A stretch of 34,941 nt of DNA, taken from the IMG/VR virus record IMGVR_UViG_2681813316_000026. One strand, 5' to 3'. Below the pieces are notes generated by a model that saw nothing but the letters and a program-made list of their open reading frames with translations, did no database searches and was not told the origin of the DNA. Shown piece after piece: positions 25,539 to 34,941 of this stretch; positions within the stretch are counted from its first letter, which is position 1, and every line of letters begins with the position of its first letter. This stretch comes from a virus (taxonomy: Duplodnaviria; Heunggongvirae; Uroviricota; Caudoviricetes). The translations under genes and the position numbers were made by a program.

Positions 25539-25928
25539 TCAGGCGGCTGCACCCGCCGTTTTCTCGTACTTACTGATAGTGATCTCGACCTTCCCTTCCG
25601 GGATAACCGGTCCCCACTCCACCAGCATTCTTTTCACCTGACTGTCGTCCTCCCACACACCCGCGTGGGTCAGGGCGTCAAACAGCGCCTTGTTATAGTT
25701 GTCCAGATCGCGGATCCGGTTATCCGGAGGAAACAACACGATCTCCACTGAAGCAGGTGCCGACGTTGGTTTCGGCAGACGACGTAACTGCTCAACTATT
25801 GCTGCGCACGCCGCGCTCTGGAATTTTCGCCCCGCCGCGCTTATCAGGCTCTTACCAGCAAACGCCCCTTTGTTGGGGTGTCGCCAGTACGTGTTCACGC
25901 TGGGCGGAAAAGGCAGGATCAGCTTCAT
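25539..25928 (-). CDS. rusA: Holliday-junction resolvase RusA
   Basis: 129-aa ORF starting MKLILPFPPSVNTYWRH with acidic residues at RusA-typical positions. Confidence 0.8.
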   Translation of the reverse strand: MKLILPFPPSVNTYWRHPNKGAFAGKSLISAAGRKFQSAACAAIVEQLRRLPKPTSAPASVEIVLFPPDNRIRDLDNYNKALFDALTHAGVWEDDSQVKRMLVEWGPVIPEGKVEITISKYEKTAGAAA

Positions 25929-29277: not shown

Positions 29278-29478
29278 CTAATCTTTCGGATAGATATCCG
29301 GTCTTAAGTCAGATTTCGTAATTGCACCTGACGTGCATTGCTCAAGTTTTTTAGCCAGCACAAAACTGGCTTTTTTATAGCCATTGAAAACCAGCCGTAA
29401 GTAGCCAGGTGTTGAGCCAACTTTTCCGGCCAACTCGCCCTGCTGTTCTTTGGTTAAAGAGTCCCAATACGCTTTCAT
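29278..29478 (-). CDS. Cro-like repressor
   Basis: 66-aa ORF with ATG at 29478, divergent from cI across the operator region, with a helix-turn-helix-like segment. Confidence 0.65.
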   Translation of the reverse strand: MKAYWDSLTKEQQGELAGKVGSTPGYLRLVFNGYKKASFVLAKKLEQCTSGAITKSDLRPDIYPKD

Positions 29479-29481
29479 ACA

Positions 29482-29553
29482 ATATGTACCTCCGGTGTAC
29501 ATATTACATGATTGAAATGAACCTTCACGATACTTGTACCTTAACGGTACAAG
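29482..29553. promoter_or_regulatory. Right operator region between cro and cI
   Basis: Two perfect palindromes sharing the TGTACC half-site: ATATGTAC-N7-GTACATAT (29482-29504) and CTTGTACC-N5-GGTACAAG (29533-29553). Confidence 0.55.
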
Positions 29554-29568
29554 GGTTTTAATTTCGTT

Positions 29569-30243
29569 ATGAAAACAATCCATGACATCCGGCGGTCTAA
29601 CGCCAGAAAACTGAGAGATGGTGTTGGCGGGAATTCTTCCTTTGCCACTATGATTGATCGCGAGCCAACCCAGACCAGCAGGTTTATGGGAGATGGTGCT
29701 ACTAAAAATATCGGTGACAGCATGGCACGACACATCGAAAAATGTTTCGACCTGCCTGTCGGATGGCTCGATCAAGAACACCAGACAACGAACATCACAA
29801 AAAAACCTGATGTTTCAATCACTAATAAACAAATCACATTAGTCCCTGTCATATCATGGGTACAGGCCGGAGCATGGAAAGAAGTTGGATATTCTGAGGT
29901 TGATTTGAGCACAGCAGAAACGTATCCCTGCCCTGTACCCTGTGGGGAAATGACTTATATCTTGCGGGTGATAGGTGATTCAATGATTGATGAGTACCGC
30001 CCGGGAGACATGATTTTTGTCGATCCTGAAGTACCTGCCTGCCACGGTGACGACGTTATTGCATTGATGCACGATACAGGTGAAACCACCTTCAAAAGGT
30101 TGATAGAAGATGGGACACAGCGTTATCTCAAAGCGTTAAACCCAAACTGGCCTGAGCCTTACATTAAGATCAACGGTAATTGCTCTATAATTGGTACAGT
30201 GATTTTCTCAGGAAAACCAAGAAGATACAAAATCAAAGCCTAA
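29569..30243 (+). CDS. CI-type repressor (HTH domain plus S24 LexA-like autopeptidase domain)
   Basis: 224 aa. C-terminal domain with the GDSM serine motif and a downstream lysine. Divergent from the cro-like gene. Confidence 0.85.
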   Translation: MKTIHDIRRSNARKLRDGVGGNSSFATMIDREPTQTSRFMGDGATKNIGDSMARHIEKCFDLPVGWLDQEHQTTNITKKPDVSITNKQITLVPVISWVQAGAWKEVGYSEVDLSTAETYPCPVPCGEMTYILRVIGDSMIDEYRPGDMIFVDPEVPACHGDDVIALMHDTGETTFKRLIEDGTQRYLKALNPNWPEPYIKINGNCSIIGTVIFSGKPRRYKIKA

Positions 30244-30255
30244 TCAATGTTTATG

Positions 30256-30279
30256 AACCTGCTTCGGCAGGTTTTTTTA
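30256..30279 (+). terminator. Rho-independent terminator after cI
   Basis: AACCTGC-TTCG-GCAGGTT followed by TTTTTT, 13 nt after the cI stop. Confidence 0.6.
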
Positions 30280-30282
30280 TAC

Positions 30283-30316
30283 TTGACAATGTACCTTTGA
30301 GATACATAATGTACCC
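30283..30316 (+). promoter_or_regulatory. Leftward-operon promoter analogue (PL-like) with operator half-sites
   Basis: TTGACA at 30283-30288 and CATAAT at 30305-30310. Overlaps ATGTACC-N5-GATACAT and a further ATGTACC repeat related to the right-operator half-sites. Confidence 0.45.
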
Positions 30317-30436
30317 AAGCGAAACAACGAACAGGCAGGACGCCCACGAAGTAGCCGCCTGGGGCATATGAAGTCCAGGATGATTCGTTGAGTCATGTTG
30401 TGCCACTAGGCACTCATGTTAAAGCAGGTGTATGAA

Positions 30437-30712
30437 ATGAAAGTCCAGATTTTAAACAATAACTGTGAAGTCGTTTGGTCATACGACATAGCCGCCCCTG
30501 TAGATCAGAGCGGCGATAGCTGGACCAATGGGAAACATCAGATTATGGCTGGAGTTGTGTTCTCTTTACGCCGTGCTTTGGAACAGGCTGAAGTATTTCC
30601 ATCAGACCCTGAATGGAAATGGCCTTTTTCTATTTGTCCAAATTCGGAGAGCACATTTCAGAAAATTGGTCAGAAAGTCGCACTCGAAGAGCATCAGCCA
30701 ACTGTTTCCTGA
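30437..30712 (+). CDS. Hypothetical protein, first gene downstream of the PL-like promoter
   Basis: ATG at 30437 (MKVQILNNN) with a GGTG ribosome-binding site. AT-rich. 3' end overlaps a convergent ORF. Confidence 0.4.
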   Translation: MKVQILNNNCEVVWSYDIAAPVDQSGDSWTNGKHQIMAGVVFSLRRALEQAEVFPSDPEWKWPFSICPNSESTFQKIGQKVALEEHQPTVS

Positions 30713-30875
30713 TTTTTTCAGGTAACTCGTCGGCATCGCAGAAACAACAACGCTCGATCATGTTGAAAGCCGATTCGTAGAACTGTTTCTGCTGAGTGTC
30801 GCTGAGACAGGAAAAGAGCGACGTTACGATGATTTTATTAATTGCATTATCAAGTTCTTTTTCATCAAAAGTCAT
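30630..30875 (-). CDS. Hypothetical small acidic protein, convergent with the PL-like transcript
   Basis: 81-aa ORF with ATG at 30875 and an AAGGA ribosome-binding site. Contains a CCFC motif. Confidence 0.4.
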   Translation of the reverse strand: MTFDEKELDNAINKIIVTSLFSCLSDTQQKQFYESAFNMIERCCFCDADELPEKIRKQLADALRVRLSDQFSEMCSPNLDK

Positions 30876-31126
30876 TTGATTTTCCTTTTATGTATACGGG
30901 CTTAAAAGGATACCACCGAGCCTGAAGTGGTGAAAAGACAGGCACATAACAGCTAAGTATTTTCAACCAAAGAGAATCCTTAGCGTTGTGGTGAATGCGG
31001 CTCAGCGCACGCGGGTTAAGGTTGAGGCTGACAGTCGACCTTCTGTGGATACCCACCCGCCTGGTGTGCAACCTTCGCCAGGCACCGGGAGGCACCCGGC
31101 ACCACAACTTTATGCTGTGTGTAGTC

Positions 31127-31395
31127 ATTTCACTGTCAGCTTTTTCCCGTAATTGGGATTTTTTAACTTCAGCAATAGCTATTAATTCCTTTTTGGTCGG
31201 CTGAGGAATATCTATCAGTGCTGGTTTTCCATTCAGTGTTCCAATCTGTTTTCCTGGTGGAATATCCATAAATAACTTTTTATGTTCTTCCTCACTGACT
31301 ATTACACCATCATCAGGCCACAGACCTGATGCCTCAAATTTTTCTTTCTCCGATATGGGGAAAAAGCCATTTGCTTTAGCGCTCCATACGTACAT
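31127..31395 (-). pseudogene. Truncated tail fibre assembly gene (5' 269 bp only)
   Basis: Near-identical to 1220-1488. Homology stops at 31127; the track ORF 30865-31395 continues into unrelated sequence with a non-protein-like tail. Confidence 0.65.
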
Positions 31396-31396
31396 A

Positions 31397-31732
31397 TCAA
31401 TACCCCACCGCTATAATGTCCACATTAAATCCCCCGGGACCTGCCTGCCAGATGCTGGCCCCTGTTAATGATTTTGTTTGATGAACAACCGCCACATTTG
31501 CTGGCGATAGTGTTTCAGTTGTTACAGTACCGATATCATTCCAGTTAATTGAGATGGAATAGTTCGTTGTTGTAAACGACCGGGGGAAAGTTATGTGTCT
31601 TGCATTGGTGCCAACAGGAAATCCAAGATAAACACGCTGAATTATCATTCCTCCAGGTAACATAACCCAGTTAGCACCTTCTCCAAAACCAACGTTTATG
31701 AAAATGCAGAAATAACGAGCAAATGGCATCAT
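31397..31732 (-). CDS. Tail-fibre variable C-terminal segment, duplicate of 1490-1785, joined to the pin-proximal flank
   Basis: Residues after the GFGEG crossover junction are identical to the expressed fibre at 1490-1785. The first 13 codons derive from the pin flank. Confidence 0.6.
   Translation of the reverse strand: MMPFARYFCIFINVGFGEGANWVMLPGGMIIQRVYLGFPVGTNARHITFPRSFTTTNYSISINWNDIGTVTTETLSPANVAVVHQTKSLTGASIWQAGPGGFNVDIIAVGY
31679..31704. repeat. Recombinant (hybrid) crossover site
   Basis: TTCTCCAAAACCAACGTTTATGAAAA: left half identical to the site at 1772-1797, right half to the inverted site at 26-51, i.e. the product expected from invertase-mediated exchange. Confidence 0.6.
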
Positions 31733-31758
31733 TCCTGCTTTTGTCAGAGGGATCCACT

Positions 31759-32313
31759 ATGCTTATTGGCTATGTACGCGTATCAACAAATGACCAGAAC
31801 ACCGATCTACAACGTAATGCGTTGAACTGTGCAGGATGTGAGCTGATTTTTGAAGACAAGATAAGCGGTACAAAGTCCGACAGACCAGGACTGAAAAAGC
31901 TGCTCAGGACATTATCGGCAGGTGACACGCTGGTGGTCTGGAAACTGGACCGACTGGGACGCAGTATGCGGCATCTTGTCGTGCTGGTGGAGGAGTTGCG
32001 CGAACGAGGCATCAACTTTCGTAGTCTGACGGATTCAATTGATACCAGTACCCCAATGGGGCGCTTTTTCTTTCATGTGATGGGTGCCCTGGCTGAAATG
32101 GAGCGTGAACTGATTGTTGAACGAACAAAAGCTGGACTGGAAGCAGCTCGCGCACAGGGACGAATTGGTGGACGTCGCCCCAAACTTACACCAGAACAAT
32201 GGGAGCAGGCTGGACGATTAATTGCATCAGGCGTTCCTCGCCAGAAGGTGGCGATCATCTATGATGTTGGTATATCGACACTGTATAAGAAGTTTCCGGT
32301 CGGAGATAAATGA
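31759..32313 (+). CDS. pin: Serine DNA invertase of the Pin/Gin/Hin family
   Basis: Starts MLIGYVRVSTNDQNTDLQRNAL (catalytic serine in the YVRVS motif), with a C-terminal HTH. About 184 aa, GAGGGA ribosome-binding site, directly adjacent to the crossover site. Confidence 0.9.
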   Translation: MLIGYVRVSTNDQNTDLQRNALNCAGCELIFEDKISGTKSDRPGLKKLLRTLSAGDTLVVWKLDRLGRSMRHLVVLVEELRERGINFRSLTDSIDTSTPMGRFFFHVMGALAEMERELIVERTKAGLEAARAQGRIGGRRPKLTPEQWEQAGRLIASGVPRQKVAIIYDVGISTLYKKFPVGDK

Positions 32314-32373
32314 AACCGTAGCACGTCGTATGCAAGAAGATCGTGCTGCGGTTTATGCTTATCACTTAAAGAC

Positions 32374-33243
<870 letters not shown>

Positions 33244-33325
33244 CTAACCCTTTGAATTTACATAGCGCAAAAAGATACCTTTCCTCATAATGTGAGCTAA
33301 TTTTATGTTTCGTTTGATGATCGGG

Positions 33326-33387
33326 TCGGTCTCGAAAACCGGAGTAGGGGCAACTCTACCGGGGGTTCAAATCCCCCTCTCTCCGCC
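33326..33387 (+). other. 3' fragment (about 62 nt) of tRNA-Ser(CGA), putative attachment-site core
   Basis: Matches, from memory, the anticodon stem-loop (CTCGAAA, anticodon CGA), long variable arm, T-arm and acceptor 3' end (GGTTCAAATCC...CCGCCA) of E. coli serU. The 5' acceptor/D-arm is absent. Confidence 0.6.
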
Positions 33388-33961
33388 ACTTTATCAATGA
33401 CTTATCTCCCGACTTCCCGCCTTGCTTTTCCTAAACAGAACAATCGTAGAATATTCTTGAAGGGTTAGATCGTCACTGTTTTCTGTTCGATACTGTGACA
33501 TTCAGCACTTGATTCGCTATGGATCTGACAGGAAGATTTCGAGCGAAAATCTGCAGTTATTCAGTCGTTTTCTTATCGGTCACCATTATTCTTTTAGACA
33601 TTGATCCTACAAAGCTGCCGCAAAGTTGGTGGTGGGAACTGAAGTTGCGTAGAGAAGGGGTCAATACCCGGAGGCAAACATGGGCTGGCAAAAGTGTAGC
33701 GGTATTAGGCGCAGCTATTTAGCCTAGTTATGTTTTATGAAAACTTGATATCATATAAGTGTCTTACTTATTGGCTGTAAATAAGTTTTTCCTAAGGAAT
33801 TGTTTCTTGAATATCATTTGTAACTGTAACGGAATTTATAATCCTTTGCTTTATTGTTACGGTATTTTTTATCACACCCTATTTTTAGTGGTTTTTTATA
33901 CTGAAGTTTGGCAAAGTGAACTTTATATACATATACTTCATCCTGGTTTCAGTTAAATTGG

Positions 33962-34714
33962 GTGGATGATATGGCAACTACATGTTCAGTTATATTGATT
34001 TTGGAGTCCTTTGATGTTTATTTCGGAAAAGAGAGTGTGTTTCTGGAGAGAGGTTCATCTGTACTTGTCGACTCTAGCTCTAGAGATTTTTTCCTGACAT
34101 ATCCTGAAAGAGTGATAGTGGCGGATTTTGGCGCTGAGTTTATTAGTCGCTATTTGAAAGCTAATAACTTAAGGGATATTTCTGATTGTAGGGAATATCC
34201 ATCTTATTTAAAAATAAACTTTGCTGACTTCAGTTTAATTAAAGGATTAATTAGTTGGGCTAATCACTGTGCTGAATACATAGAAATTTTTGATGAGTCT
34301 ATTGCTTTTACATGTCTCTCTGCATTTTCTTCTGAAAAACAATTTGGAGTATTTCTGTTTGGATGTTTGAAAAGCACAGGGGCTAAAGTTAAAACGATTA
34401 TTCATACGGATTTATCTGCACCATGGCGTCTTAAGGATATATCATCAAGATTATATCTCAGCGAAAGTTTACTAAAGAGGAAATTGAAAGAAGAGGGGGT
34501 ATCATTCAGTAAGATCATACTTGATGAGAGGATGCAAATGGCTGAATATTTACTCAGCACTCGTTGTTATCCTATTAGTAAAGTAGCTAAGGTCTGTGGT
34601 TATGCCAGTGTCTCATACTTTACTTATGTATTTAGACGTTATTTTGGTGTTTCTCCAAGTCAATACTCTCAGAGGAGTTCAGAAAGTAAAATTCTTACTC
34701 ACCAGGGAATCTGA
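33962..34714 (+). CDS. AraC-family transcriptional regulator (AppY/GadX-like architecture)
   Basis: 250 aa with a C-terminal AraC-type HTH (ISKVAKVCGYASVSYFTYVFRRYFGVSPSQY). Strongly AT-rich gene and upstream region. Confidence 0.7.
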   Translation: MDDMATTCSVILILESFDVYFGKESVFLERGSSVLVDSSSRDFFLTYPERVIVADFGAEFISRYLKANNLRDISDCREYPSYLKINFADFSLIKGLISWANHCAEYIEIFDESIAFTCLSAFSSEKQFGVFLFGCLKSTGAKVKTIIHTDLSAPWRLKDISSRLYLSESLLKRKLKEEGVSFSKIILDERMQMAEYLLSTRCYPISKVAKVCGYASVSYFTYVFRRYFGVSPSQYSQRSSESKILTHQGI

Positions 34715-34755
34715 TCATTGTTCTTGCCCCCTTATTTCCAGACAGGGGGTGTATC

Positions 34756-34941
34756 TTAAGTTAACGTTACCCGCTGACGTCGATATTCTCGCAGAGAGCG
34801 ATAACCCAACGCACTGTGCGGATGGTTTTCATTGTAATGTTCGATCGCCACTGCAAGATTATGCAATGCCGTTCTTACATTCGGTTTCGGCATGAACGCG
34901 ATGTAGTCTTCCTTCATCGTTTTCACGAACCTTTCTGCCAT
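34756..34941 (-). mobile_element. IS-element transposase fragment (C-terminal end of a DDE integrase-core domain)
   Basis: 61-aa ORF ending ...[18 protein letters not shown], resembling the C-terminus of IS3-type transposases. The rest of the transposase is not in the window. Confidence 0.5.

Follow-up and report, generated by a model that had tools for sequence, protein, structure and literature searches.

The window analyzed here is a stretch of 34,941 nucleotides (nt) from a tailed phage (Caudoviricetes; IMG/VR record IMGVR_UViG_2681813316_000026), and the region in question, 30250–31126, sits directly downstream of its cI repressor gene. This region is very probably the promoter-proximal stump of an early-left (PL) operon of the type carried by Shigella phage SfV, and its GC-rich last piece the front of a small RNA (sRNA) gene of the STnc100/PasD family without its terminator. 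The stump would comprise, in this order, the cI terminator, PL with a palindrome resembling the cI operators, a 66-nt leader, a cassette of two convergent genes and the first ~165 nt of the sRNA gene. The sRNA of intact relatives has three parts, with several GC-rich helices in the 5' domain, then a short unpaired tail and finally a strong intrinsic terminator, and is followed by yfdP, yfdQ, yfdR, xis, and int. The window would have been broken just before the terminator stem and joined, without homology, to the middle of its own tail-fiber assembly gene, after which the Pin-invertible fiber segment would appear in its opposite state, followed by pin and by genes of the GIY-YIG and AraC families.

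Over 30200–31126, the window is 99.2% identical to SfV, which past 31126 has ~190 nt more of noncoding sequence and then orf32/yfdP, yfdQ, yfdR, two small genes, xis, int, and gtr; the same continuation is found in about 2,000 Escherichia coli prophages and in phage 720R4, and every relative stops matching the window at exactly 31126. Because SfV, the E. coli prophages and 720R4 all continue past this point, the early-left region appears to have been cut rather than to be naturally small, and the earlier note on this DNA, which had described it as reduced, is better replaced by a loss from one private junction, so that the integrase arm would be missing because of that single event and not by design. 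The same note had reported no integrase, excisionase or recombination genes: a tyrosine integrase or excisionase was indeed not found anywhere in the window, but the serine invertase Pin (31759–32313) and RusA (25539–25928) are present. The anatomy of the region and these homologies are firm; a literature search on the SfV early region returned nothing specific.

Small RNA gene

The GC-rich stretch is noncoding and very probably corresponds to the structured 5' portion of a prophage sRNA that is a divergent member of the STnc100/PasD family. Its GC content is 55% over 30900–31099 and 64% in the core at 30987–31106, against 38–46% in the flanks, and 30984–31109 folds into five helices (−58 kcal/mol, z = −2.6), with 0 of 200 shuffled sequences as stable, which bears out the GC-rich noncoding stretch with local inverted repeats described previously. 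What had then been called unexplained received an identity, a truncated STnc100-family sRNA gene, from a covariance-model search: in a permissive scan, the Rfam model RF02076 matched the window at 30987–31106 with 35.6 bits (E 8e-6, model positions 31–147), and the complete SfV copy with 39.5 bits (E 8e-7, model positions 1–206). The putative gene runs on the + strand from 30963 to 31126, with the core followed by most of a single-stranded 3' tail, and its own terminator is missing.

Two blocks conserved in the Rfam consensus are present, GGUGAAU at 30991–30997 and CACCGGGAGGCACCCGGCACCA at 31084–31105. Pattern scans of IMG/VR retrieved 124 unique cores with both blocks, whose invariance among these cores holds by construction because the same blocks served for retrieval. 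The invariant blocks, the helices P1, P4, and P5, and a candidate helix P3 are common to more than 110 variants, and the minimum free energy (MFE) fold of 30984–31109 contains the closing helix P1 and the hairpins P4 and P5 in the consensus order. The outer pairs of P1 covary, and P4, which is CCUGGUG/CGCCAGG in the SfV type, is elsewhere GUUCUGUG/CACAGAGU, GAUUCAG/CUGAAUU, or others. Across the superfamily (window 30987–31106; IMG/VR loci L165–L402), the P4 loop is complementary to the strand that follows P2, which would make an H-type pseudoknot (P3). This pairing is absent from the Rfam consensus, and its partners change together in dozens of variants: in the variant cores, the pairing of the post-P2 strand and the hairpin before the last block change jointly with complementarity kept, as AAGGUUG/CAACCUU alongside CCUGGUG/CGCCAGG in the SfV type, CCAGAC/GUCUGG alongside GUUCUGUG/CACAGAGU, and AUCAGCA/UGCUGAU alongside GAUUCAG/CUGAAUU. 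The P3 complement AAGGUUG/CAACCUU lies at the expected places in the window. With shuffled loops the mean was 5.35, compared with an observed value of 6.59, so that this control is only mildly discriminating, and column covariation for P3/P4 on a MAFFT alignment was only modestly above controls, since register shifts blur a plain alignment.

Past the core, intact relatives have a tail of ~25 nt and then a strong intrinsic terminator, GCGGUACCAG...CUGGUACCGUCCUUUUU in SfV and in all of them, which is deleted in the window, the cut falling just before its stem. A chance terminator-like hairpin with a T-run (31145–31158, + strand; 5-base-pair [bp] stem with three G–C pairs) lies 19 nt past the junction and could end the transcript of the truncated sRNA. 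STnc100 loci are multi-copy in O157 prophages and expressed, and one has been confirmed by Northern blot (PMC5331693); a copy downstream of stx2 overlaps the Hfq-bound sRNA EcOnc27/sRNA103 (PMC12711010), and the family is related to the Hfq-bound PasD (bioRxiv 10.64898/2026.05.13.724894). By analogy, the SfV-type sRNA would act as an Hfq-type base-pairing regulator, disabled or altered in the window. HK022 has none of the motifs of the GC-rich segment, by which its identity as an HK022 put RNA was ruled out.

PL promoter and leader RNA

The promoter at 30283–30310 (+ strand; TTGACA-16-CATAAT, matching the consensus at 11 of 12 positions) seems to be a genuine, repressor-controlled PL-type promoter, because the type of palindrome found between cro and cI recurs between its hexamers. 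Read directly from the sequence, these palindromes have the general form (A/T)TGTACC-N5-GGTACA(T/A), with two copies in the cro–cI intergenic region (ATGTACCTCCGGTGTACAT at 29484–29502 and TTGTACCTTAACGGTACAA at 29534–29552) and a similar one inside PL, ATGTACC-N5-GATACAT (30289–30307). The PL-like promoter that the earlier note had placed upstream of the two ORFs therefore stands, with an operator-like palindrome in addition.

The most interesting element of the region is the conserved structured leader RNA encoded at the 5' end of the PL transcript (30323–30393, + strand; the 66-nt element is 30326–30391). Its helix P1, which begins ~10 nt past the predicted transcription start, pairs 30326–30331 with 30384–30389, and P2 pairs 30358–30362 with 30375–30379; GGCAGGACGCCCACGAAGUAGC and GGAUGA are its invariant blocks. 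In 30 diverse sequences the two helices were paired in 95.8% of the cells and 10 of the 11 pairs had changed on both sides, giving a covariation score of 0.764; shuffling brought the score down to 0.19 (0/500), and sliding the partners to 0.156 or less. The window copy reaches 92.3 bits with a covariance model of the leader, and each phage yields a single copy. This is a well-supported structured RNA without an Rfam family (no match in Rfam at E ≤ 10), positioned where antitermination elements sit.

More than 110 variants of the leader were recovered in an IMG/VR scan, and BLAST showed the 66-nt sequence to be conserved in phages of Klebsiella, Yersinia, Pantoea, and Citrobacter. It stands at the start of the PL transcript in phages of Escherichia, Salmonella, Yersinia, Pantoea, and Citrobacter, with similar sequence in the Klebsiella phages, and in the Yersinia, Pantoea, and Citrobacter phages inspected it lies just past a LexA-like repressor gene and a promoter. 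The sRNA motif occurs downstream on the same strand in 56 of 121 distinct leader contexts, and Pantoea phage AH07 repeats the whole arrangement, from cI through promoter, leader, and small cassette to an STnc100-like sRNA. In a Salmonella enterica relative (L405, 1552–2979), a 384-aa gene with an HSDR_N domain separates the repressor from the leader, which there lies ~20 nt before the orf33 homologue and not directly after the repressor gene.

Its position makes the leader a candidate put- or nut-like element. That it is the HK022 putL itself was ruled out by sequence, topology and copy number, the covariance model having no match in HK022. One could go further, in what we regard as a speculative and rather improbable proposal, and see in it a new cis-acting, put-like class of processive antiterminators, which would act first on the terminator of the STnc100-like sRNA, usually situated a few hundred nt farther along. 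A single promoter would then yield the sRNA upon termination or the yfdP–int operon upon read-through, and its transcription would also switch the convergent pair in between, as a cassette for lysogeny versus lysis.

Convergent gene pair

Between the leader and the sRNA lie two open reading frames (ORFs) that are real genes under purifying selection and form a portable two-gene cassette, as argued by an excess of third-position substitutions and by the recurrence of the pair in diverged phages. The first is an orf33-type gene and the first gene of the PL operon (30437–30712, + strand): the frame is open over 30416–30712 (98 amino acids [aa]), and the start backed by a ribosome-binding site, at 30437, gives a protein of 91 aa, which the NCBI Prokaryotic Genome Annotation Pipeline (PGAP) also calls in identical prophages. 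Convergent with it, and antisense to the PL transcript, is an 81-aa gene (30630–30875, − strand) with a good Shine–Dalgarno sequence, AAGGA, 7 nt before its ATG. The 3' ends of the two share 83 nt (30630–30712), close to the ~80 nt estimated before. The matches of both proteins in PHROGs are to families of unknown function only (3195 for the 91-aa and 3311 for the 81-aa protein), and neither has a significant match in Pfam, NCBIfam or PADLOC. The AlphaFold2 model of the 81-aa protein predicts three helices with a predicted local distance difference test (pLDDT) score of 70.8, and a Foldseek search with it found no match at E ≤ 0.001; the orf33 model has a pLDDT of 44 and is unusable.

Diverged homologues of the pair in Salmonella and metagenomic relatives are intact, convergent, and overlapping, with identities of the 91-aa and 81-aa proteins of 68%/62%, 61%/59%, and 52%/50% in three relatives; the last of these pairs adjoins a lysis cassette and does not lie downstream of PL. 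Conservation of the pair extends over four divergence levels, with 3' overlaps of 74–176 nt. Counted by first, second, and third codon position in the non-overlapping parts, the 91-aa gene had 17/11/31 and 21/10/34 substitutions, and the 81-aa gene 12/9/31 and 12/10/35. The ratio of nonsynonymous to synonymous substitution rates (dN/dS) of the 91-aa gene is 0.13–0.18, and dS is saturated in the 81-aa gene. The earlier note would have been overturned had neither ORF been translated and had the GC-rich segment matched the coding sequence of a truncated gene; instead, both ORFs are under selection and the matching sequence of the relatives is noncoding.

A solitary homologue of the 81-aa gene occurs between Q and the holin gene, again antisense to a lytic operon. 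Among natural variants, a frameshifted orf33 lies beside a 100% identical 81-aa gene (L408, 66–353), and an 81-aa gene elsewhere has an in-frame deletion of 21 codons (L409, 1607–1831), from which it follows that either partner of the pair can decay alone. The 81-aa gene would be expressed in the lysogen and opposed by lytic transcription from PL, with orf33 as an early lytic gene, and the geometry together with the conserved overlap makes it plausible that the PL transcript and the 81-aa gene interfere with each other, through antisense effects or through transcription itself.

Junction and duplicated fiber segment

The private, no-homology junction at 31126/31127 joins the sRNA gene head-to-tail to the equivalent of window position 1220, since 31127–31692 is a direct copy of 1220–1785, 100% identical up to the central AA of a 26-bp crossover site; as the earlier note had it, the GC-rich stretch abuts the truncation point of a duplicated fiber cassette, the match to relatives ending at 31126 and the copy starting at 31127. 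The duplicated stretch holds the N-terminal 89 codons of a 142-aa tail-fiber assembly gene (31127–31395, − strand), which reads on through the antisense strand of the sRNA to give a chimeric 176-aa ORF (30865–31395, − strand), and the fiber tip, a silent cassette at 31397–31732 on the same strand. Past the crossover site (31679–31704), the first copy leads to the constant part of the fiber gene and the second to pin (31759–32313, + strand) and the GIY-YIG and AraC genes. In a normal prophage, that of E. coli 602, the pin/GIY-YIG/AraC block lies beside the fiber genes in the opposite relative orientation. The join therefore seems to be head-to-tail with a unit of 29,907 bp, with both states of the invertible segment represented.

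Neither microhomology nor a shared k-mer was found at the junction, and the best match to a crossover site near either parent was 11–13 of 26 positions, where shuffled sequences average 13; a match at shuffle level rules out a product of Pin/Gin recombination at a 26-bp site or pseudo-site. The junction was not found in 5,426 complete E. coli genomes, INPHARED phages, GTDB representatives, IMG/VR, or JGI metagenomes, and the 176-aa chimeric ORF is not on record in public assemblies. The window has three invertase crossover sites, within 1–57, 1772–1797, and 31673–31729. Positions 1–44 are the exact reverse complement of 31686–31729, the pin-side flank, so that the window starts inside a 44-nt inverted copy of this flank, and it ends in an insertion sequence (IS) remnant; for these reasons both ends look like contig breaks at repeats.

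Alternative explanations

Several points weigh against the reading of the region as a stump of the SfV-type operon that ends in an STnc100/PasD-family sRNA. Neither the window nor the SfV copy reaches the RF02076 gathering score of 47 bits, for which reason the default Rfam scan is empty (a gathering-threshold scan of the whole window, together with ARAGORN, gave no match), and membership of the STnc100 family rests on motifs and helices and not on this curated test. The MFE fold of the SfV-type RNA prefers a nested partner, UCGACCUU, over the family P3, and the sRNA's own promoter, AAGACA-17-TATTTT as read from the sequence, is weak and below the scan threshold. The junction, moreover, may not exist in the DNA. 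Another account of the GC-rich segment, that it is a decayed protein-coding gene, takes up the "frameshifted hypothetical protein" that PGAP places as a pseudogene over the equivalent of 30988–31298 in E. coli prophages, and ORFs of 54–226 aa can indeed be drawn through the segment. We hold this to be very improbable: the segment aligns to an RNA covariance model, its invariant blocks of 7 and 22 nt are common to more than 110 variants with covarying helices, and in relatives it ends in an intrinsic terminator, while in other phages the antisense ORFs called there are readings of the invariant RNA block and seem spurious. One of these is the annotated gene of AH07 at 1784–2020 on the − strand (L414), which is the antisense strand of the STnc100-like sRNA and reads "...VPPGA...". 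It and the window ORF at 30865–31395 are probably spurious, and the PGAP pseudogene and the ORFs through the GC-rich segment are best read as artifacts. As for the convergent genes, the earlier note had also suggested a toxin–antitoxin-like module. In its fuller form, a self-contained regulatory or toxin–antitoxin-like unit with antisense transcription from the 81-aa gene governing the PL transcript or being governed by it, this is unlikely in our view, even though the pair keeps its 3' overlap in four diverged lineages, one of them elsewhere in the genome beside lysis genes, and the solitary 81-aa homologue is likewise antisense to a lytic operon. The Pfam, NCBIfam, PADLOC, and fold searches matched nothing, type II systems are co-directional, whereas these genes converge and do not form one operon, and type I systems combine a tiny hydrophobic toxin with an RNA, whereas both partners here are selected, conserved, soluble-looking proteins. 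Strict addiction is further argued against by each partner having been found in nature disrupted beside an intact other.

Two accounts of the junction remain, both compatible with an operon stump. That it is real has, in our judgment, almost an even chance: illegitimate recombination would have joined 31126 to the 1220-equivalent of a tandem prophage copy, or circularized or duplicated the 29.9-kb unit, with loss of the sRNA terminator, of everything from yfdP to int, of att, and of the pin-side end in one copy, while flipping by Pin would have produced the two states of the fiber segment. The repeat is direct and exact to the crossover point, as a head-to-tail join gives, a de Bruijn assembler would not invent a junction at which no k-mer is shared, and E. 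coli often carries remnants of this prophage type reduced to pin, GIY-YIG, and AraC; however, the absence of the junction from the five large collections and of the fusion ORF from the record speaks against it, as does the same pin-side flank at both window ends, for which no single simple structure accounts. The other account, which we consider possible though somewhat doubtful, is that the junction, or at least the attachment of 31693–34941, is an assembly or library artifact, mixed orientations of the segment creating repeat nodes and the pin/GIY-YIG/AraC block lying in reality to the left of position 1. Window ends formed by a 44-nt inverted copy and an IS remnant are typical of contigs that stop at repeats, the 3.8-kb right arm is inverted with respect to its normal position, and the duplicate is 100% identical. 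The join of the sRNA to the middle of the assembly gene, however, has zero overlap and thus cannot be created by a graph misjoin alone, and a chimeric read or an amplification chimera would be needed.

Genomic setting

The window belongs to a temperate phage of the SfV type, lambdoid in its early genes and Mu-like in those of the tail. The tail, head, lysis, and replication genes occupy the − strand from ~1 to 29246, followed by cro (29278–29478, − strand) and by the cI repressor gene (29569–30243, + strand), which is of the ymfK type and LexA-like. The intrinsic terminator of cI (30255–30274, + strand) has an 8-bp stem and then a T-run, and the SfV record annotates a terminator at the same position. 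Downstream of pin lie a LEM-3-like GIY-YIG gene (32374–33198, − strand) and the AraC-family regulator (33962–34714, + strand); 33700–34400, which spans the interval separating these two as well as the first part of the AraC gene, is very AT-rich (29–35% GC). The block of AraC gene and IS remnant is also found at the ends of the lambdoid phages mEp332, ev099, and PhiR70_1.

For the small early-left region itself, little changes: it would be a degraded or mis-joined prophage end. SfV-type phages, however, seem to carry in their early-left operon an unannotated, sub-threshold STnc100 subtype of a family so far tied to late and stx regions, and this subtype would account for the spurious ORF and pseudogene calls at the locus. 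The orf33/81-aa cassette, real and portable, and the PL leader, a structured RNA new to Rfam at the position of an antitermination element, are the items worth following up.

Comparison with known systems

The early-left region of SfV, with orf33 and its flanking putative terminators, is among the closest known counterparts, sharing the same cI, promoter, orf33, and noncoding stretch; unlike SfV, the window lacks orf32/yfdP, yfdQ, yfdR, xis, int, and gtr, and the SfV record annotates neither the 81-aa gene nor the leader RNA nor the sRNA. The duplicated fiber segment resembles the invertible segments of the Gin/Pin/Cin type (Mu G, e14 P) in its 26-bp sites with central AA, its alternative tips and assembly genes, and its adjacent serine invertase, whereas the break at 31126 falls away from any crossover site and does not resemble one.

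Convergent type I toxin–antitoxin loci with overlapping 3' ends exist, e.g., txpA/RatA, and as in these loci the transcription units here converge and their 3' ends overlap by ~80–180 nt; unlike them, both partners are conserved proteins of 76–122 aa and a hydrophobic toxin peptide is absent. The leader is comparable to HK022 putL, a cis-acting antiterminator RNA, in lying directly downstream of PL, in its length of ~70 nt and high degree of structure, and in the end motifs ACGAAC and CAGGAUGA, which are common to both. However, putL has two tandem stems and the leader one closing helix around an inner hairpin, and in contrast to put it shows no overall sequence match and is single in the window, with no second copy downstream of PR.

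From typical STnc100 RNAs, the SfV type differs in scoring below the Rfam threshold, in its replaced P2 hairpin (GCGGCUCAGCGCACGC instead of CCCCCUGUGCGGAGGGG), in its longer core (122 nt against ~102–113 nt), and in belonging to the early-left PL operon, where the others lie downstream of Q or stx; the window copy, in addition, has no terminator. With EcOnc27/sRNA103 of E. coli O157 and PasD of enteropathogenic E. coli (EPEC), it nevertheless shares a prophage location, the blocks GGUGAAU and CACCGGGAGGCACCCGGCACCA, the closing helix, and the P4 and P5 hairpins in their order, and its intact copies, as in that family, have a variable 3' tail and an intrinsic terminator.

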